DNA of 64,000 nucleotides. Origin: Mobula hypostoma. Lineage: Eukaryota. The number at the start of each line of letters is the position of its first letter. The first letter of the stretch is position 1. A model generated the notes under the pieces. That model was not told where the DNA came from. It ran no database searches and saw only the letters and a list, made by a program, of their open reading frames with translations. The DNA is taken from the NCBI RefSeq assembly GCF_963921235.1, contig NC_086108.1:58282001-58346000 (forward strand), written 5' to 3'. Positions 3,843-62,408 of this stretch are shown piece after piece. The translations under genes were made by a program, and so were the position numbers.

Positions 3843-4789
3843 GAACTGTTGTTTGGTGAAAAGAGTTTGCAGATGGAAAGGTTGCCAGCTTCAGGACAGA
3901 CAATGAGTCTATGGCAGCAAGGTAAACCATGCCACCTCTTGTCAGAACACAATAGTTTATAAAACTATGTGCACCCTGCAAAGAGCATCCTTATGCAAAC
4001 CAAATGCTGTTTCAGTCCTGGAACCACCACAATAGTACTGAACATTGTTACTGAATCACTGTTACGTATCTCCCTTTGCCTGTTCAGTATATGAAAGCTA
4101 ACAGTTCAGAAAGGTGAAGATCACAGCACAGTAAGAGAGCAGACAGAAGTGTGGGGCAGCAACAGATGCCTAAAGGAAAGAAATCATGTGTCAATGATTA
4201 CTGCTGTAATTGATGGCCAGTGGGTGGATATGGTTTACCATTCCTGTCATTGTCTTTGTTATGACCAATTCCAAAAAGTGTTCCATTGATATCTTTAGAT
4301 CTAGAGATGTTATCTAGAAGTCAAGAATGAGGCACAAATCTTATGGTTTCACGTTCACAGGGAAAATATGTAAACTTCACCCAGACTGCACTGGAACTCA
4401 AGACTGAACCCAGATCAGTGCACCTACAAGGAACCAGTTCTACTTGCTGTACAACCCTGCTGGCACATTGTTCTTTTTTGGCAGCTTAAACTAGCCTATA
4501 GAGATGCACTTGCTGCAGAAGCTGTCAGAAAACTGACAAGAGAAACTTATTGAAAAATGAACATGAAGACGACAAGCAAAAAGTAAGACAGGTGTCAAAA
4601 TCACAACAGATGTATCTCTCACTTGGAATATTCCTGGAAATTTACAAAAATAATCAGAATCAGATTTATTGTCACCGACATTAGTTGTGAAATTTAACAT
4701 ACAAGAGATTTTGCAGATGCTGGAAATCCAGAGCAACACACACAAAATACTGGATGCACTTCAGGTCAGGCAGTGTCTATGGAGAGGAC

Positions 4790-17990: not shown

Positions 17991-19164
17991 TATTTTAAAA
18001 AATAGAATAATAGATTTCAATCACAATGTTATCATCATTCATCTGATGACTATTACAATTCCAAATTACTAGATAGTATCAATCTAAGTGTCAATCTTTA
18101 GACCACATTTTGATGAAATTAATATACTTCTAAAATTTGAATTGTCCTAAAAACAGAACATTGTATTTTTGCAAGCATGATTCTATGTTATAAATATTTC
18201 CTGTACAACATGCCTAATAAATCAAACTTCAAAAATGATTGAAAACCTAACTACAGAACCTGGAAATACTCAAACTGCCAAAAATGATTGCTCAGCATTC
18301 AACTGTTTTTCCCCATTACGCCAGGAAGCACAGACATCAGGACTTGGTCTAGTGAAAGATTATCAACCTGAAACATCAACTGTTTCTCTCTCCATGGCTG
18401 GTGTTTGACTTGCTGAGCAGTTCCAACATTTTCTGTTTCTTCTGCAAAAGCTTCAGGTTGTAGAAGTTCAAACCACTATAACCGATGGATTGTAAACAAT
18501 TTTCCAAGATCAGCCATATGATAATAAAATAGCATTCAACAAATTAGGACCTCTATATTAAAACATTCTTATCTGCAAATATTCTAATCCTGTTTTTGAA
18601 TGACTGATCATTTGCACTTTTGCTTAAAGTACCTTGCAAATTAATCAATACAATCAGAATCTGGGTATATTCTGCTCGTAGAAATTTCTCTACTATTACA
18701 TTGCTAGCCCAGATACGATGATTTTGAGATCACTGGATTTGTTAAGTGTTCAGGAAATAGTGAGCCAGTGGTGAAATACAAATCTGACTGGATGAGATTT
18801 CTTGGAAGTAATTTTTAATTATACCCCACATACAGTCGGTGAAAACATTTATTTCTGAAATAATTGTCATAAGCCAGATGACCAAAATGTTTTTATGTGC
18901 ATCAAAATAATCAGTATAAGAACAAGGAATCAAAACTGGGGATTATGTGAAAATACCATTCATTGTCCTGTTCATAAAATGGGCAATTATAGTAACAATA
19001 TGCTTAATTGCAATAAAATACTGGTCTATCTTCAGAACAACATAGATCATACTGGAAATAAGGTTGAATACAAAGCAAATATCGATAAACGTTGATCAGT
19101 TTCAAGCAACACACATCAAAGTTGCTGGTGAACGCAGCAGGCCAGGCAGCATCTATAGGAAGAG

Positions 19165-19510
19165 GGTGAAGTTAGTCACCAAATTGCAGGAAGACTACTC
19201 CTACTACCACCACCAAGGAAATTCCAGTCTCGAAGATTTTGTGCTAACTTTACCATGAAAAGTCCCAAGCCTGGCTGCGAAAGGAGGGCTGGGCATGGGG
19301 CTACCAACCCCACCCTGTAAAAGACTAGTACTACAGAAGCTCCAAAGACCTCATCCCTGGGAGAGGAAGGATCTTCGGCTAGAAAACATATGAAGTCGTG
19401 TGGTGAAAGCAGAAACCACAGGGCAGATCAACCTTTGGCCCAGGACAGAGGAAACTGGTGAGCTGCTGTTGGCAGCCTATGGCCCAGTAAGGGTGATAGG
19501 CTTAAGAAGA
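19165..19510 (+). mobile_element. RTE-derived bipartite non-autonomous element
   Basis: RTE-like 5' motif (TCCCAAGCCTGG..AAAGGAGGGCTGGGCATGGGGCTACCAACCCC) joined to an RTE-like 3' end (GCCCAGGACAGAGG..TGG..GCTGCTGTTGGCAGCCTATG..CTTAAG). Confidence 0.55.
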
Positions 19511-20099: not shown

Positions 20100-20320
20100 A
20101 AGGACTGCAGATGCTGGCATCTGAAGCACTGGAATAACTTAGTGAGTCAAGTAGCTTCTATGGAGGGAAATAGACAGTGGATGTTTTGGGTCAAGAACCT
20201 TCACCTGGACTTGAACCAAAGTGTTAACTGTTCATTTCCCTCCTTAGATGCTGCCTGACCTGCTAAATTCCTCTAGCATTTTGTGTATTGCTCAAGAATT
20301 CCAGCATCTGCAGAATCACT
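20100..20320. mobile_element. Penelope-derived fold-back element, decayed
   Basis: CTGCAGATGCTGG ... CCAGCATCTGCAG inverted ends with inverted internal arms. Confidence 0.7.
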
Positions 20321-22589: not shown

Positions 22590-25560
22590 CTAAATCTAGC
22601 ATGCTCAGCACTTGCAACACAAAAAAGCGCTGGATGAGCTCAGCAGGTCAGGCAACATCTATCGAGGGCAATACATAATTGATGATTCAGCCAAGATTCC
22701 TGATATGAACTGGAAAGAGGGGAAATTTCCAGTATGAAAGGGTGTGGAGCCAGAGCTGGTAGGTTATAGGTGGATTCAAGTGAGGGAAATCATAGGCATA
22801 TGAAGGAAGAAGGACAGTGGGAATGATGTAAGAAGCTGGGAATGATAGTGGAAGTAACAAAGGGTTGAAGAAGACGGAATGACAGGAGAGGATAGAAACA
22901 TAGAAACATAGAAAATAGGTGCAGGAGTAGGCCATTCGGCCCTTCGAGCCTGCACCGCCATTCATTATGATCATGGCTGATCATCCAACTCAGAACCCAG
23001 CCTTCCCTCCATACCCCCTGACCCCTGTAGCCACAAGGGCCATATGTAACTCCCTCTTAAACATAGCCAATGAACTGGCCTCAACAGTTTGCTGTGGCAG
23101 AGAATTCCACAGATTCACCACTCTCTGTGTGAAGAAGTTTTTCCTAATCTCGGTCCTAAAAGGCTTCCCCTCTATCCTCAAACTGTGACCCCTCGTTCTG
23201 GACCTCCCCAGCATCGGGAACAATCTTCCTGCATCTAGCCTGTCCAATCCCTTTAGGATCTTATACGTTTCAATCAGATCCCCCCTCAATCTTCTAAATT
23301 CCAACGAGTACAAGCCCAGTTCATCCAGTCTTTCTTCATATGAAAGACCTGCCATCCCAGGAATCAATCTGGTGAACCTTCTTTGTACTCCCTCTATGGC
23401 AAAGATGTCTTTCCTCAGATTAGGGGACCAAAACTGCACACAATACTCCAGGTGTGGTCTCACCAAGGCCTTGTACAACTGCAGTAGTACCTCCCTGCTC
23501 CTGTACTCGAATCCTCTCGCTATAAATGCCAGCATACCATTCGCCTTTTTCACCGCCTGCTGTACCTGCATGCCCACTTTCAATGACTGGTGTATAATGA
23601 CACCCAGGTCTCGTTGCACCTCCCCTTTTCCTAATCGGCCACCATTCAGATAATAATCTGTTTTCCTATTTTTGCCACCAAAGTGGATAACTTCACATTT
23701 ATCCACATTAAATTGCATCTGCCATGAGTTTGCCCACTCACCCAACCTATCCAAGTCACCCTGCATCCTCTTAGCATCCTCCTCACTGCTAACACTGCCA
23801 CCCAGCTTCGTGTCATCCGCAAACTTAGAGATGCTGCATTTAATTCCCTCATCCAAGTCATTAATATATATTGTAAACAACTGGGGTCCCAGCACTGAGC
23901 CTTGCGGTACCCCACTAGTCACCGCCTGCCATTCTGAAAAGGTCCCATTTATTCCCACTCTTTGCTTCCTGTCTGCTAACTAATTCTCCACCCACACCAA
24001 TACCTTACCCCCAATACCGTGTGCTTTAAGTTTGCACACTAATCTCCTGTGTGGGACCTTGTCAAAAGCCTTTTGAAAATCCAAATATACCACATCCACT
24101 GGTTCTCCCCTATCCACTCTACTAGTTACATCCTCAAAAAATTCTATGAGATTTGTCAGACATGATTTTCCTTTCACAAATCCATGCTGACTTTGTCCGA
24201 TCATTTCACCGCTTTCCAAATGTGCTGTTATCACATCCTTGATAACTGACTCCAGCAGTTTCCCCACCACCGACGTTAGGCTAACCGGCCTATAATTCCC
24301 CGGTTTCTCTCTCCCTCCTTTTTTAAAAAGTGGGGTTACATTAGCCACCCTCCAATCCTCAGGAACTAGTCCAGAATCTAACGAGTTTTGAAAAATTATC
24401 ACTAATGCATCCACTATTTCTTGGGCTACTTCCTTAAGCACTCTGGGATGCAGACCATCTGGCCCTGGGGATTTATCTGCCTTCAATCCCTTCAATTTAC
24501 CTAACACCACCTCCCTACTAACATGTATTTCACTCAGTTCCTCCATCTCACTGGACCCTCTGTCCCTTACTATTTCTGGAAGATTACTTATGTCCTCTTT
24601 AGTGAAAACAGAACCAAAGTAATTATTCAATTGGTCTGCCATGTCCTTGCTCCCCATAATCAATTCACCTGTTTCTGTCTGCAGGGGACCTACATTTGTC
24701 TTTATCAGTCTTTTCCTTTTTACATATCTATAAAAGCTTTTACAGTCCGTTTTTATGTTCTCTGCCAGTTTTCTCTCATAATTTTTTTTCCCCTTCCTAA
24801 TTAAGCCCTTTGTCCTCCTCTGCTGAACTCTGAATTTCTCCCAGTCCTCAGGTGAGCCACTTTCTCTGGCTAATTTGTATGCTACTTCTTTGGAATTGAT
24901 ACTATCCCTAATTTCTCTTGTCAGCCACGGGTGCACTACCTTCCTTGATTTATTCTTTTGCCAAACTGGGATGAACAATTGTTGTAGTTCATCCATGCAA
25001 CCTTTAAAAGCTTGCCAGGATGGCAGAACATGGAATAAAGAAGATAGGGAGTGGAACCAGTGAGAGGGATGTGTGGTGAGGGGAACCAATTGGATCAGAA
25101 GGAGAAAAAAAAAATCAGGAGATGGGACAGAGGGGAATGGTGCTCAAGAATTCTATGCTTATGCCATCAAGTTGGGAACTACCTAGGCAGAATATGAGGT
25201 GCACTTTCTGTAATTTGCATTTGGCCTCAACCTGGCTATGGACAGACATGTTTGTGTGAGAATGGAAAATGGATTTAGAATGGATGTCCACTGAGAGATC
25301 CTGGCTGACGTGTTGGATGGAATGAAGGTGCTTGATGAAGTGGATCCCCCAAAATGTGTCAGGTCTTACTGATGTAGAGGCTGCACGGGGGGTACCGGAT
25401 GCAATAAATAACACTGAGTGATTCACATGTGAAAGGAGGGAGAGAGATGTTGAAGATGGACCAAATGGATTTCAGAGTAGGATGGAAGTCCAGGAGCACA
25501 GCTGATGAAATACAGGAAACTGCACCAATATAGTTATTAATTTAGTTCAGAGTTTGGTGT
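22590..25560 (-). mobile_element. Penelope-like element 3' portion (22590-22890 and 25017-25560), interrupted by a young CR1
   Basis: Minus-strand GIY-YIG remnant FTCESLSVIYCIRYPPCSLYISKT (~25350-25435) and C-terminal HSHTNMSVH..HLIFCLGSSQLDGISIEF. Followed by a pyrimidine-rich UTR and the fold-back-family motif. Confidence 0.75.
22892..25017 (-). mobile_element. Young CR1 LINE, 5'-truncated, RT region with one nonsense codon at 23980-23982
   Basis: ORFs 23980..25089 and 22990..23958 are in the same frame. (CATAGAAA)n tail. Nearly identical to 56033-58160. Confidence 0.96.
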
Positions 25561-32767: not shown

Positions 32768-33385
32768 ACGACGAAGGGTCTCGGCCCAAAACATCGATTG
32801 TACCTCTTCCTAGAGATGCTGCCTGGCCTGCTGCGTTCACCAGCAACTTTGATGTGTGTTGCTTGAATTTCCAGCATCCGCAGAATTCCTCGTGTATGCC
32901 ATTAGCTTTCTTATTGATGGGTGGCAGTTAGAGCTGTCCCAATCCTGCACATGCTGATGGTGATTAGCAGAGTTTGACCCCTCGAAAACTCTACCCCTCC
33001 CTTCCCCCATCCCAGTATCCCTCCCCTCCCCTCCCCATCCCAGTTTCACTCTGCCCCCTCCCCCAGCTGCCTATCACCTCCCTCATGGTTCCACCTCCTT
33101 CTGCTACCCATTGTGCTTTCCCCTATTTCTCCTTCACCTTTCCTGCCTATCCCCTCCCTGCTTCCCCTTTTATCTTTCTCCTTACCGGTTTTCACCTGGC
33201 ACCTACCAGCCTTCTCCTTCCCACCCTCCCCCCACCTCCTTTATAGGGCCCCTGCCTGTCCTGACGAAGGATTCCGGCCCGAAACGTTGACTGATCGTTT
33301 CCACGGATGCTGCCCGACCTGCTGAGTTCCTGCAGCGTGTTGAGCGTTGCTTTAACCCCAGCATCTGCAGGGTATTTTGTGCCCT
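32768..33385 (+). mobile_element. Penelope-derived pieces (32768-32895 and ~32975-33385) with hammerhead-like cores
   Basis: Pyrimidine-rich UTR followed by GTCCTGACGAAGG..CCCGAAACGTTGACTG at 33258-33293. Confidence 0.7.
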
Positions 33386-38640: not shown

Positions 38641-38989
38641 TGGAAACATGAGAGCCTGCAGATGCCTTAATTTGGAGCAATAAACAAACAAATGGGGAAC
38701 TCAGCAGGTCAAGCAGCATCTGTGGAGGAAAATGCATGATCGAGGTTTCGGGTCCAAATTGCAGCACTTGCAGTCTCACGCATATATTTTACTACTCCAC
38801 TGTGAAATCTCTTCAAAGTAGGTCTGCTTTGAAGTTTTCCTGTTCCTCAATGGAAGCTCTGTGAGCCACTTTCATACTCTGCCCTCCCCAACCCCTCTAT
38901 ACTCTGCCACACCATTCCCCCACCGCGCCCTCTCCAATCCCACTTCGGTATCCCCATCCCTCACACTGATTCTAAACCCCTCCCCATCC

Positions 38990-39151: not shown

Positions 39152-40000
39152 GTGCCGGACGGTCGCTCGGCGCCGTTCCCCAGGCTGCCTGCGCCCCGCC
39201 TGCTGAAGCGAGGGCTGCTGGGAAGCAGCGCACGGGCATTGTGGGATACTGCAGAGGGTGCCTGTTGTCGTTGTTGTTTGAGCGTGTACGGCCGAATATT
39301 CACTGCCGATTAATTACCATCAGATTGTCATTTGTGCCACTTTGTTTTCTTATTTATTTTAATGTCTTAGGTTCGCGAAAACGTCGTGGAAAGTTGGATC
39401 GGGAAAATAAAATTATTCCCCTTTAAAAACGCTTATAATATTTCAAACGATGGCTACAGACGTGATTCAAGTGACCAATGTTTCGCCGAGCGCGACCTCC
39501 GAGCAGATGAAAACTCTGTTCGGATTTTTGGGCAAAATCGAGGAGTTGCGTCTCTTCCCTTCAGAGTGAGTAACTCCAAACTGTCAGGCGGGGCCTGGGC
39601 CTGGGCCGCGCCGGCTCCGCATGATCTGACGTCGAAAGTTTTCATTTTCTGAGGAAAAGTGTGTTTGTACAGCTGTGGCACCTTTACTGACGTGCGTTCC
39701 CAAATATATTCAGAAAGTGTCAGATGCTCTTCCTTGGATCTGCCCGAGTCCCTCAGCAGCTTCCACTATTGTCTGCCTTTCTGCCTGGTTGCCCCCTCCC
39801 CCTCGCACATCTGACCAGGCCACGTTTCCGCCCAGTCGTTGATGTTGAAGTAGATTGGGTGTTAGTCTAATTACTTAACCATGATAAGGTTGTAAGATGC
39901 ATCTAAGTAGCAAGAAACATTTTTTATTAAAGTTGTACCAAAGTTTGAATTTGCATTATTATCAGTGTAACGTAAAATGGCCGCCAATGCAAAGGCACGA
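39150..40000. promoter_or_regulatory. SRSF11 promoter/5'UTR/first-intron CpG-rich region
   Basis: High CpG density around coding exon 1. CRE-like TGACGT near 39628 and 39688, YY1-like AAAATGGCCGCC near 39974. Confidence 0.6.
39450..39565 (+). CDS. SRSF11: SRSF11 coding exon 1 (MATDVIQVTNVSPSATSEQMKTLFGFLGKIEELRLFPS), RRM start
   Basis: ATG in good context (ACGATGG). RRM N-terminus matches recalled SRSF11/p54. Donor GA|gtgagt. Confidence 0.95.
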
Positions 40001-48524: not shown

Positions 48525-50043
48525 GTGAGTAAGCTTCAATTTAAACTTTTTTGAGTCTGTTTATTATGAGCTGCTGTTGTTTATATGTAAATGGGATTTG
48601 CTGGCTGCTTCAAAAATTGTCAAATATTAATCACTGTTGTATACAGAATATTGGCCTCTTTTGAAGTGCAAAATATTGTGATTGCCTTAGTTCAGATAAA
48701 CGATATTAGTATTTGAGGTCATAGTTGTCAATTAATCACAAGAAATAGCTTGGATTACTTTCTTCGGTCCCGTAGAAGGGTCGTGGCCCAAAATATCAAC
48801 TGTGTATTCTTTTCCATAAATGCTGCCTGACCTGTTGAGTTCCTCCAACATGCTGTGTGTGCTGCTTTGGATGTCCTGTTATTTAGAGGAATAAATTTTG
48901 AAAGCTGGTCTGTAGAGTATTGTGAACAAGCTGAGTTGGAAATAGATCATTAGATAGATTTGCAAATGCATTCGACAGTGGATTATGTAAAATGGCAAAG
49001 TTGCAAAAGGTCTGATTTTGCTTGAAGTAATTGCAAGGGATTTGAATACATGGTTAACTAGTGATCATTTTCTGCATTGGTTTTGCATTCAAATTGCATG
49101 ATACTAATTTCTGATGAAGGCAGAGGGGTTGCTTGTCGACAAAAATTGAGTTAAAAGTAATGTGTCAGAGATAAACTGCGGGAACAGAAATTGTAATGAT
49201 ATATATGTGACTGAATAAAGTGAAATTGAGTGGGAGGTGGCCAGTGGTGGAAGAAATGGAAAATAGTATAAAATATGTTGAGGGATGGTAGTATTCTAAG
49301 ATGAAGTTTCAAGAAATATGGACATGAATTGGGGAGAAGTCAGTATGATTGAAGATGTTGGAGAAGAAAGGAGTGTTAGAGCAGTTATTTACAAGAGTGA
49401 CATGCAGTTAAGTATTTTTGTGTTGTGTTGGTGATTTGGAGACAATTTTAACATTAAAGTATAATGTATTAATTTGTTGAAAGTAATTTGAAATGAGAAA
49501 TTAATAGCAGGTTAAAATTGCTATACACTGAACTGTTATCGAACATTTTAAATTTTATTTTAACACCAGAATATTGTTTTCCGTAGTAACATTGAAAAAT
49601 ACCAACTTTCAAAGAATATAATTAATACTTGTTAAAAGAGGTTTTTGGAAACTGCCATTTGTCAGTATTGATTTGTAATATCTGTACCAAGTTTATTTTG
49701 ACTGTTAAAATTGCTATTGGTATTAATTTTGCATTTGCATTAACCTTTATTGGTGTTGATTTGCTTTAGAAGCAAGGCATTATGTATAGACATCTGGAAT
49801 GGTGAAGGAGTTAAGGTTGAATTCAGCCACATGAATGAAGGCCCTATATTTGACTTTAATTTGATCAATTGAGAACAGAAGTAACTTGAACATGGCCCAC
49901 TATTAGCAAATAACAGTAAAACACAAAATACTGAATTTTGCAGGTGTTGTCTAAATGTAGATCCACGTGTTTAAAACAAGGCCATTTTCATATTTTTACT
50001 TACACATAAATAGTTCCTTCTGACATTCGTTTCTTTTAACCAG

Positions 50044-54374: not shown

Positions 54375-55313
54375 GTAATATTGCTATATCTAATACTTTG
54401 CTTCTGATAGTAATACTTATACAGCTTAGACGCAAAATAGTGAATCACTTTGGTGCTATGAAACTTCGTGTTTGCTTTAGTATAACAGGTTGAGAACTGG
54501 AGCAATATAGACATTTGGCTTGCGTAGGAAGAGTTCAATACACAAATCCTGTGACTGTACACCTAAAACACTAAATATGGACAAGTTTTGTACAAGTTTA
54601 ACCCAAATTGAAGTATCTTAATCTGGATAGCAGTGAGCAGCACATGGCAGTACCGATTTACTTGTTTTGCTAGACAAGGAATCTGTGAACAAACTTGAGT
54701 AATTAAATGGATGATTATTTTACTGAGCAGTGTATTACTTAATACTGAATTCACACTGACTTGTAACTCATCTGCTACATTATGCTGTTTTGGAGCAGAT
54801 ATCTATTTAATGGTAAACCATACCATTACTGCCAATAGTAATGATTCAAGACTTTTGACAAGTGCTGTCAGGTATGCAACAGAAATGCTATTACATAAGG
54901 AACAAAGGCAGAAAATGATGGAATTTGGAAAGGGAAGTATTTAACAAGATTGAGAAACCTTCAATGGTTCCAACATTTTCTATTTTATTTTCAGATACCA
55001 GTATCTCACTTTTGATGGCCGATCTGTAATATCTTTGTGTTTGACAATTCAGGATTTTTATTATGTTTTACAAGAAGTGCAAAGTAAATATCAAAATTAA
55101 ATCTAAAACTATCATTTCCACTTTAATACAGATTTTAATTTGAGACCGAGGATAATCAGGTAAATTCCCTTCATCAATAATCTGGCCAAATTTGCTCTAA
55201 ATTTATCTGTTTTGCAGAAGTAGCTATTTTCGGTCATTTCAAATGATTGAAAATTTGCAGTGAATGTTACTGCTTTTTGTGAAAGCAACTTGTACTCAAT
55301 ACCTAATTGTATA

Positions 55314-55534
55314 CCACACAAAATACTGGTGGAACACAGCAGGCCAAACAGCATCCATAGGAAGAAGCACAGTCGACGTTTTGGGCTGAGACCCTTTGTC
55401 AGTGTGTCCTGATGAAGGGTCTCGGCCCGAAACGTTGACTGTGGTTCTTCCTATGGATGCTGTCTGGCCTGCTGCGTTCCACCAGCATTTTGTGTGTTGC
55501 TTAAATTTCCAGCATCTGCAGATTTTCTCGTGTT
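55314..55534. mobile_element. Penelope-derived fold-back element with hammerhead-like core and 14-bp TSD
   Basis: ~85-bp inverted arms. TACCTAATTGTATA duplicated at 55300-55313 and 55535-55548. Confidence 0.85.
55406..55441 (+). ncRNA. Putative minimal type I hammerhead ribozyme motif
   Basis: GTC-CTGATGA-A-GGG(TCTCGG)CCC-GAAA-CG-TT-GAC: conserved boxes, helix II, and helix I (GTC/GAC). Confidence 0.6.
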
Positions 55535-55650
55535 TACCTAATTGTATAACTTTTATTCACTCCATTAAAAGTTCCTAGTTTTGATACAAGGTTCAGTTCT
55601 CCTTTCATTGTTAGTTATCATTTTCATGAATCCTACATTGTAAATTTCAG

Positions 55651-55732
55651 AAAAAAAAGATGACAAAAGGAAACATTCTAGATCGAGGTCTCGTTCACGC
55701 AGGCGACGGTCTCGTTCCCGTTCAAGGCATAG
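55651..55732 (+). CDS. SRSF11: SRSF11 coding exon 7 (EKKDDKRKHSRSRSRSRRRRSRSRSRHR), RS domain start
   Basis: tttcag acceptor, gtaagg donor, 82 nt. Confidence 0.94.
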
Positions 55733-56032
55733 GTAAGGAATGGAAGTTTCTTTTGGAAAAGGGATATAATTAAGACATACTACTTCTCACCTTGAGTTCT
55801 TGTGTAATATACTATGCATTTAATGAAGGGAACATTAGTTCGACAATGGATATATTGCCTTGAGTTGAAAAAAAAATTTCTTCATGGGTAATAAAAAATT
55901 GAAGAATAGACTGCAGCATAAAGAATAGTATTCTTTTGCTTTGCTGGTATCACCATGACAAACATAAGGCATTCTGTTCCTGTATTAACAGAGCCTCTGA
56001 AATTCTATACTACATCCTTTCCGGCAAGTTTT

Positions 56033-59000
56033 AAACATAGAAACATAGAAAATAGGTGTAGGAGTAGGCCATTCGGCCCTTCGAGCCTGCACCGCCATTT
56101 ATTATGATCATGGCTGATCATCCAACTCAGAACCCCGCCCCAGCGTTCCCTCCATACCCCCTGACCCCTGTAGCCACAAGGGCCATATCCAACTCCCTCT
56201 TAAACATAGCCAATGAACTGGCCTCAACAGTTTCCTGTGGCAGAGAATTCCACAGACTCACCACTCTCTGTGTGAAGAAGTTTTTCCTAATCTCGGTCCT
56301 AAAAGGCTTCCCCTCTATCCTCAAACTGTGACCCCTCGTTCTGGACTTCCCCAACATCGGGAACAATCTTCCTGCATCTAGCCTGTCCAATCCCTTCAGG
56401 ATGTTATACGTTTCAATCAGATCCCCCCTCAATCTTCTAAATTCCAACAAGTACAAGCCCAGTTCATCCAGTCTTTCTTCATATGAAAGTCCTGCCATCC
56501 CAGGAATCAATCTGGTGAACCTTCTTTGTACTCCCTCTATGGCAAAGATGTCTTTCCTCAGATTAGGGGACCAAAACTGCACACAATACTCCAGGTGTGG
56601 TCTCACCAAGGCCTTGTACAACTGCAGTAGTACCTCCCTGCTCCTGTACTCGAATCCTCTCGCTATAAATGCCAGCATACCATTCGCCTTTTTCACCGCC
56701 TGCTGTACCTGCATGCCCACTTTCAATGACTGGTGTATAATGACACCCAGGTCTCGTTGCACCTCCCCTTTTCCTAATCGGCCACCATTCAGATAATAAT
56801 CTGTTTTCCTATTTTTGCCACCAAAGTGGATAACTTCACAATTATCCACATTAAATTGCATCTGCCATGAGTTTGCCCACTCACCCAACCTATCCAAGTC
56901 ACCCTGCATCCTCTTAGCATCCTCCTCACTGCTAACACTGCCACCCAGCTTCGTGTCATCCGCAAACTTGGAGATGCTGCATCTAAATCGCTCATCCAAG
57001 TCATTAATATATATTGTAAACAACTGGGGTCCCAGCACTGAGCCTTGCGGTACCCCACTAGTCACCGCCTGCCATTCTGAAAAGGTCCCGTTTATTCCCA
57101 CTCTTTGCTTCCTGTCTGCTAACCAATTCTCCACCCACACCAATACCTTACCCCCAATACCGTGTGCTTTAAGTTTGCACACTAATCTCCTGTGTGGGAC
57201 CTTGTCAAAAGCCTTTTGAAAATCCAAATATACCACATCCACTGGTTCTCCCCTATCCACTCTACTAGTTACATCCTCAAAAAATTCTATGAGATTCATC
57301 AGACATGATTTTCCTTTCACAAATCCATGCTGACTTTGTCCGATCATTTCACCGCTTTCCAAATGTGCTGTTATCACATCCTTGATAACTGACTCCAGCA
57401 GTTTCCCCACCACCGACATTAGGCTAACCGGTCTATAATTCCCCGGTTTCTCTCTCCCTCCTTTTTTAAAAAGTGGGGTTACATTAGCCACCCTCCAATC
57501 CTCAGGAACTAGTCCAGAATCTAACGAGTTTTGAAAAATTAACAGTAATGCATCCACTATTTCTTGGGCTACTTCCTTAAGCACTCTGGGATGCAGACCA
57601 TCTGGCCCTGGGGATTTATCTGCCTTCAATCCCTTCAATTTACCTAACACCACTTCCCTACTAACATGTATTTCACTCAGTTCCTCCATCTCACTGGACC
57701 CTCTGTCCCTTACTATTTCTGGAAGATTATTTATGTCCTCCTTAGTGAAGACAGAACCAAAGTAATTATTCAATTGGTCTGCCATGTCCTTGCTCCCCAT
57801 AATCAATTCACCTGTTTCTGTCTGCAGGGGACCTACATTTATCTTTACCAGTCTTTTCCTTTTTACATATCTATAAAAGCTTTTACAGTCCGTTTTTATG
57901 TTCCCCGCCAGTTTTCTCTCATAAACTTTTTTCCCCTTCCTAATTAAGCCCTTTGTCCTCCTCTGCTGAACTCTGAATTTCTCCCAGTCCTCAGGTGAGC
58001 CACTTTCTCTGGCTAATTTGTATGCTACTTCTTTGGAATTGATACTATTCCTAATTTCTCTTGTCAGCCACGGGTGCACTACCTTCCTTGATTTATTCTT
58101 TTGCCAAACTGGGATGAACAATTGTTGTAGTTCATCCATGCAACCTTTAAATGCTTGCCATTGCATATCCACCGTCAATCCTTTAAGTGTCATTTGCCAG
58201 TCTATCTTAGCTAATACACGTCTCATACCTTCAAAGTTACCCCTCTTTAAGTTCAGAACCTTTGTTTCTGAATCAACTATGTCACTCTCCATATTAATGA
58301 AGAATTCCACCATATTATGGTCACTCTTACCCAAGGGGCCTCTCACGACAAGATCGCTAATTAACCCTTCCTCATTGCTCAAAACCCAATCCAGAATAGC
58401 CTGCTCTCTAGTTGGTTCCTCGACATGTTGGTTCAAAAAACCATCCCGCATACATTCCAAGAAATCCTCTTCCTCAGCACCTTTACCAATTTGGTTCACC
58501 CAGTCTACATGTAGATTGAAGTCACCCATTATAACTGCTGTTCCTTTATTGCACACATTTCTAATTTCCTGTTTAATACCATCTCCGACCTCACTACTAC
58601 TGTTAGGTGGCCTGTACACAACTCCCACCAGCGTCTTCTGCCCCTTAGTATTACGCAGCTCTACCCATATCGATTCCACATCTTCCCGGCTTATGTCCTT
58701 CCTTTCTATTGCGTTAATCTCTTCTTTAACCAGCAATGCCACCCCTCCTCCCCTTCCTCATGTCTATCCCTCCTGAATATTGAATATCCCTGAACGTTGA
58801 GCTCCCATCCCTGGTCACCCTGGAGCCATGTCTCTGTGATCCCAACTATATCATAATCATTAATAACAATCTGCACTTTCAATTCATCCACCTTATTACG
58901 AATGCTCCTTGCATTGACACATAAAGCCTTCAGGCACTCTTTTACAACTCTCTTAGCCCTTATACAATTATGTTGAAAAGTGGCCCTTTTTAATGCTTGC

Positions 59001-60698
59001 CCTGGATTTGTCGGCCTGCCACTTTTACTTTTCTCCTTTGTACTTTTTGCTTCTACGCTCACTTTACACCCCTCTGTCTCTCTGCACTGGTTCCCATCCC
59101 TCTGTTGTGAACTAACCTCCTCACGCCTAGCCTCTTTAATTTGATTCCCACCCCCCAACCATTCTAGTTTAAAGTCACCTCAGTAGCCCCCGCTAATCTC
59201 CCTGCCAGGATATTGGTCCCCCTAGGATTCAAGTGTAAACCGTCCTTTTTGTACAGGTCACGCCTGCGCCAAAAGAGGTCCCAATGATCCAAAAACTTGA
59301 ATCCCTGCCCCCTGCTCCAATCCCTCAGCCACGCATTTATCCTCCACCTCATCGCATTCCTACTCTCACTGTCGCGTGGCACAGGCAGTAATCCCGAGAT
59401 TACTACCTTTTGCGGTCCTTTTTCTCAACTCCCTTCCTAGCTCCCTATATTCTCCTTTCAGGACCTCATCCCTTTTCCTACCTATGTCATTGGTACCTAT
59501 ATGTACCACGACCTCTGGCTCCTCACCCTCCCACTTCAGGATATCTTGGACACGATCAGAAATATCCCGGACCCTGGCACCAGGGAGGCAAACTACCATC
59601 CGGGTCTCTGGACTGCGTCCACAGAATCGCCTATCTGACCCCCTTACTATCGAGTCCCCTATCACAACTGCCCTCTTCTTCCTTGCCCTACCCTTCTGAG
59701 CTACAGGGCCAGACTCTGTGCCGGAGGCACGGCCGCTGTCGCTTCCCCCGGGTAAGCTGTCACCCCCCAACAGTACTCAAACAGGAGTACCTGTTGTTAA
59801 GGGGCACAGCCACCGGGGTACTCCCCATCACCTGACTTTTCCCCTTCCCCCTCCTAACCGTGACCCACTTGTCTGCCTCCCGTGGCCCCGGCGTGACCAC
59901 CTGCCTTCCACTCCTCTCTATCACCTCCTCGCTCTCCCTGACCAGACGAAGGTCATCGAGCTGCAGCTCCAGTTCCGTAACGCGGTCCCTTAGGAGCTGC
60001 ATCTCGATGCACTTGGCGCAGATGTAGACGTCTGGGAGGCTTGGAGACTCCAGGGCCTCCCACATCCGACACCGAGAACAGCAGACTGCCCTCACAGTCA
60101 TAATGCCCCTCTCCTCAAATAGCAACAGAAAATGAATGTCAAACCTCCCTCGCCTCGCCCGCTTCCGCCTAAGCCCGTTGAGCCGAAGCCCTTAAGTCTA
60201 CACTCTGCTCCCGGCTCACTCCGCCGCCCGCAAACTACGCTGCCCGCTCTATGAGGCTTTATTCCTTTTAAATCTGCCGCGCTGCACTGCCCGACGTCAC
60301 ACGCCTGTGCAGTCCCGCCTCTCAGAAAGCCGTTGGAGAGAAAAAATAACGAAAATTTCAAAAATCTCTTTCTCGGCACTCCCACTCAGACTCTCAGACT
60401 CCTTCTTCGAATCAAACCCGAAGCAGGATGTCTGCCCTTTTAAATCTGCCGCGCTGCACTGCCCGACGTCACACGCCTGCGCAGTCCCGCCTCTCAGAAA
60501 GCCGTTGGAGAAAAAAAATAACGAAAATTTCAAAAATCTCTTTCTCAGCACTTCCACTCAGACTCTCAGACTCCTTCTTCGAATCAAACCCGAAGCAGGA
60601 TGTCTGCCCTTTTAAATCTGCCGCGCTGCACTGCCCGACGTCACACGCCTGCGCAGTCCCGCCTCTCAGAAAGCCGTTGGAGAAAAAAAAATAACGAA
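56033..60698 (-). mobile_element. Full-length young CR1 LINE: 5' tandem monomers, ORF1 (zinc finger/leucine zipper + SGNH esterase), ORF2 (APE endonuclease + RT), (TTTCTATG)n tail
   Basis: 871-aa open ORF2 segment 56127..58742, endonuclease start in 58706..59158. ORF1 in 59760..60125, 59366..59770 (GDS, GTND) and 59164..59382 (DGLH). Three apparent 1-nt frameshifts. Confidence 0.97.
60264..60698 (-). repeat. 2.5 tandem copies of a 172-bp monomer at the CR1 5' end
   Basis: AAATCTGCCGCGCTGCAC recurs at 60270, 60442 and 60614. Confidence 0.95.
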
Positions 60699-62056: not shown

Positions 62057-62185
62057 GCGTTCCAGGAGTAGGTCTAGAAGGCGTTCACATTCAAAGTCTA
62101 GAAGCAGGCGGCGATCACGAAGTCCAAGACGAAGGAGGTCACGCTCAAGGGAGCGGAGGAGGTCTAGGAGTATATCAAAGCCAAG
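62057..62185 (+). CDS. SRSF11: SRSF11 coding exon 8 (RSRSRSRRRSHSKSRSRRRSRSPRRRRSRSRERRRSRSISKP)
   Basis: aaacag acceptor, AAG|gtcttt donor (weak), 129 nt. RS repeats. Confidence 0.9.
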
Positions 62186-62324
62186 GTCTTTAATCTTGCA
62201 ATATTCTTGTCATGTATTGATTTTCTTTATTATATATTACTGAATCAGTAATAATTTTCAGATGGTTTTGTGTAATACAAGCTATTTTTGAGCATGAGCT
62301 TTGTATTTCTTGCATATGTTTTAG

Positions 62325-62408
62325 GGAAAAAAAGAAGGAAGAGAAGAAAAGATCCAAAACACCACCTAAAAGCTACAGCACAGCCAGGCGGTCTCGCAGC
62401 CCCAGTAG
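62325..62408 (+). CDS. SRSF11: SRSF11 coding exon 9 (EKKKEEKKRSKTPPKSYSTARRSRSPS)
   Basis: ttttag acceptor, gtatgc donor, 84 nt. KRSKTPPKSYSTARRSRS motif. Confidence 0.93.

Follow-up and report, generated by a model that had tools for sequence, protein, structure and literature searches.

A hammerhead-bearing fold-back in an intron of Mobula hypostoma is very probably a one-off, 5'-truncated head-to-head insertion of a Penelope-like retrotransposon

Locus, empty site and anatomy of the insert

The window, i.e. the whole 64,000-nt stretch of the Mobula hypostoma genome that was analyzed, harbors an SR-protein gene encoding SRSF11-type peptide motifs (at 39465, 45234, 52492, 54314, 55680, and 62058-62359, all within the window). 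We take this gene to be SRSF11, and its exon number likewise, from peptide motifs present in the window. The gene name was not returned by database look-ups, which gave no usable match in Atlas and only weak RRM matches in the PDB search. A fold-back derived from a Penelope-like element (PLE) lies in the intron preceding an RS-rich exon of this gene. The features of the locus are as follows.

54375-55650, plus strand: host intron, 1276 nt, GT..AG; spliced joint 54374>55651 in RNA-like runs X9 and X12
55300-55313, no strand: left target-site duplication (TSD), exact 14-nt direct repeat of 55535-55548
55315-55402, minus strand: inverted tail-less pLTR stub, beginning at hammerhead C3, without helix I; G8 and G12 lost at CpG sites
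55399-55408, no strand: head-to-head junction, readable as three extra bases before GTCC or as a TCAG microhomology with two substitutions
55406-55535, plus strand: 3' end (pLTR segment and tail) of an RT and GIY-YIG Penelope-like element, with ~85% identity to the termini of intact copies
55406-55439, plus strand: minimal type I hammerhead motif; helix I down to 3 bp; T at both C7 and C17; cut predicted after 55436
55497-55535, plus strand: PLE tail, ~39 nt, on one arm only; continues into the 5' end of the ORF in intact elements
55535-55548, no strand: right TSD, exact repeat; first T common to the element end
55651-55732, plus strand: downstream RS-rich host exon, from sequence and spliced joint; acceptor at 55651
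32770-32898, 33258-33370, 19101-19165, 20247-20314: other PLE stubs in the window
38656-38752, 48767-48867, 4701-4753, 22614-22662: other PLE stubs in the window, continued

A previous reading of the DNA from its sequence only had described a 221-bp insert between exact 14-bp repeats, composed of paired inverted arms and located about 115 nt upstream from the acceptor. This description was borne out. The arms (55315-55402 and 55409-55496) are 88 nt each, 90% complementary, and 6 nt apart, and the measured distance between the insert and the acceptor at 55651 is 116 nt. Because the T at 55535 can equally be assigned to the end of the family, GTGTTT(G), the TSD measures 13-14 bp. The insert is asymmetric, the tail being appended to the right arm only.

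The check for an empty site in relatives established that the insertion is real. The insert was absent from organisms C and D, in each of which one contig bridges 55307 to 55541 with one letter between them; the target at this empty site is present as a single copy, 3 nt longer. Contigs of organisms A and B contained both insert junctions, with 18 differences over 1,195 nt. Organism C differed from the window at 56 positions in about 1,160 nt, and the insertion, missing at ~5% divergence, is fairly young.

Additional observations were made in the vicinity. At position 55920, 12 bases that the window lacks are present in organisms B, C, and D, indicating a small deletion in the lineage of the window. 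A strongly skewed C-rich repeat, which we take to be probably a LINE, starts in the next intron and covers 56040-60000. At least eight further stubs of the same PLE group are present in the window (listed above); the stub at 33258 has a near-intact core and belongs to a different subfamily.

The parent element and the origin of the fold-back

Copies retrieved from the genome with the right arm all terminated at one shared point. At the other side, 21 of the 29 other best-matching loci continued 5' into common element sequence, for up to 1.25 kb, and these extensions encode RT thumb, Cys-rich CxxC linker, and GIY-YIG frames. A protein search for the parent element provided 59,996 candidates, 150 of which were scored, and at least three contained open frames of 1043 aa. 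Intact copies consist of a 3515-bp unit in partial tandem with the sequence of the insert at both ends (L085-L088, L091); at their 5' pLTR copy, the tail (last ~39 nt) runs on into the ORF. Thus, the hammerhead motif is present in the terminal repeats of autonomous Penelope elements, namely in the pLTRs at both ends of intact copies, as the sequence-only reading had required. The single ORF of the parent encodes RVT_1 followed by GIY-YIG, both detected by Pfam in the 1043-aa frame under the curated cut-offs (E = 1.2e-4, score 22.3 versus 29.6, and E = 0.003, score 18.2 versus 22.6, respectively). The translation also contains a CxxxxCxxC motif, resembling a Zn finger, within the stretch that joins RT to EN. 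A Zn-finger-like RT-EN linker is described as a criterion for Neptune elements that is common to Nematis (PMC8557442). From this linker motif, which Nematis shares, the parent is likely to belong to the Neptune clade.

The element is young, with intact copies, and abundant: a 20-nt family anchor occurs 75,636 times in the genome, and the exact hammerhead core pattern has 23,502 matches versus 8 for the reversed control. Judged by sequence identity, the right arm of the insert is the 3' end of an autonomous PLE, and a second copy, inverted and without a tail, forms the left arm.

We analyzed 76 distinct head-to-head pairs, a non-random sample since many loci were picked by core or junction patterns. 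Exactly one arm was tailed in 73/76 pairs, whereas two arms were tailed in one pair and none in two pairs. A TSD of at least 9 nt was found in 58/76 pairs and was 12-14 bp long in 38 of these 58. The size of the fold-backs was continuous, from about 140 nt to 6.6 kb, and the kb-scale copies L089 and L090 displayed the identical layout of tailed and tail-less arms arranged head to head. Fold-backs in which both arms end just 5' of C3 number 3,083 and, sharing this end point, are of similar size (~200-230 nt).

Sequence identity to the ends of intact elements was observed, as were the TSD and the layout of the insert, its empty site, and the pattern of decay. We consider it very probable that an abundant Penelope-like retrotransposon with an endonuclease, likely of the Neptune clade, gave rise to the insert in a one-off event that left two 5'-truncated copies head to head, and that the hammerhead is likely an inert passenger. 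The proposal that Penelope machinery made the insertion was borne out. In the proposed mechanism, the endonuclease would nick both strands 13-14 nt apart, and two cDNAs would be primed, one from each of the internal RT start sites flanking the tail. Each cDNA would end close to the hammerhead's front edge, and the two would then be joined head to head. The mechanistic data come from an in vitro study of a Poseidon element, which belongs to a clade other than the inferred Neptune clade of the parent.

Alternatively, a single cDNA might have reached the TCAG located 9 nt upstream from the core, folded back onto its own CTGA, and copied itself. The window junction can be read as a TCAG microhomology, provided that two adjacent substitutions are admitted, and the tail was on the longer arm in four of the five pairs of this junction type, which is the predicted polarity. 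Palindromes at the inverted junctions of PLEs have also been interpreted as products of self-priming (PMC3846280). However, in 22 of the 73 pairs genome-wide, the tail-less arm outran the tailed arm on the 5' side by more than 10 nt, and a single folded-back cDNA cannot produce those. Folding back provides by itself no reason for the copied arm to end at the tail boundary. Self-copying by one cDNA is thus an unlikely, albeit not negligible, origin of the insert.

The sequence-only reading regarded the insert as a non-coding retrozyme-like unit mobilized in trans. This proposal was not supported: the sequence was identified as the 3' end of an autonomous PLE, its junction occurs a single time, arms vary continuously in length between ~200 nt and several kb, and no tandem array is present. 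The exact junction sequence had a single match in the genome, the window copy itself, and the four neighbors with one mismatch were all in other subfamilies. It is very improbable that the short fold-backs propagate as a non-autonomous family of the retrozyme, SINE or MITE type, mobilized in trans through PLE proteins, despite the similar size of the 3,083 fold-backs whose two arms stop just 5' of C3 and the PLE-derived retrozymes reported in vertebrates, including one chondrichthyan (10.64898/2026.07.22.740005). A few junction sequences did recur among the first 50 listed, but most of the 50 differed, and the recurrent ones were located at microhomologies or palindromes, as was also observed at control positions. 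In addition, arm sizes were continuous up to the kb range, and retrozymes are by definition tandem direct repeats with at least two intact hammerheads. Some of the thousands of ~200-230-nt fold-backs may occasionally have been re-mobilized.

Two side observations were made on junctions. An identical two-base filler preceded AGTCC in three different subfamilies (L110, L111, L112, and junction lists). Contigs of other loci contained the joints 55534>55406 and 55497>55409, connecting either end of the unit head-to-tail to the hammerhead edge. Template jumps at an RNA end would be expected to yield such head-to-tail joints, and short tandem forms could be retrozyme-like by-products.

The hammerhead motif, the hairpin and the host transcript

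The right-arm core, CUGAUGA-A-GGGU(CUCG)GCCC-GAAA-CG-UU, spans 55409-55436 and is closed by GUC/GAC. A 4-bp version of helix II is possible (GGGU/GCCC, with CUCG as the loop). In the window copy, the cut-site triplet is GUU, positions 7 and 17 are U, and helix I is 3 bp long. The assignment to the minimal type I hammerheads of PLEs was confirmed for the right arm only, which contains the core, the extra base at 9/10.1, and the palindromic helix III. The view that the palindrome ACGU is a vestigial helix III was likewise supported, and the predicted cut after 55436 agrees with the position given by the sequence-only reading. In contrast, the claim of a ribozyme motif on each strand did not stand since the left copy has A at both G8 and G12 and lacks the 5' strand of helix I. 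An Rfam scan of the insert returned no hammerhead match and only sub-threshold matches to hairpin (miRNA) models.

Six of the nine differences between the arms are CpG transitions, and this pattern suggests that both arms decayed neutrally after the insertion, mainly at CpG sites. At the family level, 11 core positions were constant in the majority lines of subfamilies A, B, D, and W. The covariation check on the majority lines of five subfamilies revealed that 9/9 helix pairs were kept, with two one-sided and no compensatory changes. Variable columns accounted for 8/37 positions in the motif versus 20/47 downstream, one group consisting of only three decayed copies. Non-CpG changes per copy amounted to 18/619 within the core, 39/959 for the remaining motif positions, and 117/1712 downstream, the latter rate being inflated by the lumping of subfamilies. 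The youngest subfamily (L085-L092, open 1043-aa frames) has G10.1-U11.1 instead of the usually conserved G-C of helix II, which points either to a relaxation of selection on the ribozyme or to a shift of register (A-U, G-C, G-C). The hammerhead of the window is likely an inert passenger.

The energy computed for the folded insert is -163 kcal/mol (z = -21.7). The hammerhead fold, when imposed, costs +49 kcal/mol relative to the hairpin, corresponding to a predicted equilibrium share of ~5e-35; these energies are all predictions for equilibrium. This difference argues against the competition between hairpin and ribozyme folds proposed from the sequence. The left arm, transcribed first, would capture the right arm in an 88-bp hairpin, and a minimal hammerhead would also need a sense-strand partner or a PLE protein. 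A regex search between the first and last coding exons identified no second intact sense core. For both reasons, i.e. capture of the right arm and the need for a partner or protein, cleavage of the host RNA is unlikely under this model.

The suggested effect on the SRSF11 pre-mRNA was not seen; intron 54375-55650 was spliced in RNA-like runs of both carriers, organisms A and B. Contig depth was 3.7-16 for the intron versus 144-436 for the exon and was similar in the carriers and in organism C; these contig-derived values cannot rank retention. We also considered an action of the insert on the host pre-mRNA, either by ribozyme activity or through an 88-bp dsRNA stem promoting editing or altered acceptor use. 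The hairpin is very stable and ends about 150 nt before the acceptor, the better core is in the sense orientation, and the insert has been kept in two organisms. Against these points, the fold energy rules out the ribozyme form, the search for a second intact sense core was negative between the first and last coding exons, CpG decay was neutral in both arms, the insert is young (absent at ~5% divergence), and the normal spliced joint was found in both carriers. An action on the host pre-mRNA is therefore highly improbable, and a role in SRSF11 processing unlikely.

The 5'-end hotspot at helix I and comparison with known systems

The 5' ends of copies and the inversion junctions concentrate at the first bases of helix I, about 30 nt upstream from the cut site. 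Fold-backs numbered 3,083 just 5' of C3, versus 305 in an interval including the cut site and 176 at 35 nt upstream; the counts are un-normalized, and the anchors differ in length and subfamily cover. No pile-up of ends was detected at the cleavage site. In the first 50 junctions listed from the 3,083 set, 68 of the 100 arm ends were located, by eye, in the five bases ending at C3, and arm ends dropped four-fold one base further 5'. A non-family base directly preceded GTCC in 5,013 anchors, about 23 of 100 listed being point variants rather than breaks, and a purine preceded AGTCC in 3,001 anchors. Most copies read through the hotspot since 52,718 of the 75,636 anchors continue six bases further 5'. 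Ends at the hotspot were found in 2/24 tail-selected copies and 8/72 copies of a mixed set, indicating that the hotspot is sharp but concerns a minority of copies.

Both an initiator-like TTAGTCC and an acceptor-like tract lie at the hotspot. A tally by eye for a cap-derived G gave G in 50 cases and A in 50 cases. Upstream from the core, the pLTR of all subfamilies (e.g. L086:6300-6340) contains a branch-point-like motif, a pyrimidine tract, and an AG adjoining helix I. In Penelope of D. virilis, an intron ends at helix I (PMC4209133). A spliced-RNA origin of the hotspot found no support: no upstream exon was shared by 200 listed breaks, the TSD often directly adjoined the break, and the candidate donor-acceptor join, tried for one of eight candidate donors, had no genomic copy. 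Literature searches found no published report of a 5'-end pile-up at helix I.

Our preferred reading of the hotspot, which we put forward tentatively, is that the front edge of helix I (A/G of AGUC, in the initiator-like TTAGTCC) is an RNA 5' end and that stubs and fold-backs are strong-stop cDNAs. The stubs of ~100 and ~135 nt, which number in the thousands, would be strong-stop cDNAs from the two internal RT start sites, and fold-backs would result from the joining of two such cDNAs primed from both nicked strands. If this reading is true, the ribozyme would lie at the 5' end of a capped mRNA and would act on expression rather than on the insertion template, and the genome would contain an in vivo record of a two-primer PLE mechanism. 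The locus itself matters little, being one among tens of thousands of Penelope stubs. The family, in contrast, is a good test system with countable footprints (the one-tail rule, the 12-14 bp TSD, and the helix I 5'-end hotspot), which bear on how the inverted ends of PLEs are formed and on what purpose the PLE hammerhead serves.

The motif shares with the metazoan PLE hammerheads described by Cervera and de la Pena (2014; PMC4209133) the core, the extra base between 9 and 10.1, the G10.1-C11.1 pair, the palindromic 15.2-16.2, a short helix I, and dispersal as thousands of single copies. Helix II is 3-4 bp long here versus 7-8 bp in Schistosoma (PMC4209133). The window copy also differs from the described hammerheads by its GUU cut site and 3-bp helix I, and the youngest intact subfamily by G10.1-U11.1. 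The same study already mentions dual motifs on opposite strands and reports no in vitro cleavage by single minimal hammerheads and weak cleavage by dimers (PMC4209133).

For PAc, a Poseidon element of Anolis, both strands were cut and extended, reverse transcription started at two internal sites flanking the tail, and cleavage by the hammerhead needed the element protein (Frangieh et al., 2024; PMC11167929). The two systems have in common two ends flanking the tail and a tail that enters the coding 5' region, and the both-strand products of PAc fit the one-tail rule. They differ by their clade and by the position of the first ATG, which is downstream from the tail here and within helix II in PAc.

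Non-LTR retrozymes are described as direct repeats in tandem that contain two or more intact hammerheads (Li et al., 2026 preprint; 10.64898/2026.07.22.740005). The insert resembles them in being non-coding and pLTR-derived and in carrying a type I hammerhead, but it consists of one pair of inverted arms whose only sense motif is decayed, rather than a tandem array with two hammerheads. Nor is it a propagated unit with fixed boundaries starting at the cut site, as ends cluster ~30 nt upstream from that site and its junction is unique.

The closest counterparts are insertions of endonuclease-bearing PLEs, in which a copy is accompanied by an adjacent inverted 5'-truncated copy, a tail of 30-40 bp on one side only, and a TSD (PMC8557442, PMC3846280). 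In the passages of these two papers covered here, no accumulation of 5' ends at helix I is described. All features of the units reported for Neptune and Penelope/Poseidon (Craig et al., 2021, PMC8557442; Arkhipova et al., 2013, PMC3846280), i.e. 5' truncation, adjacent inverted copy in head-to-head orientation, single tail, TSD, and pLTR hammerhead, are common to the insert. With respect to these accounts, the insert displays no structural difference, and the window copy represents the short extreme of such units, without ORF sequence.
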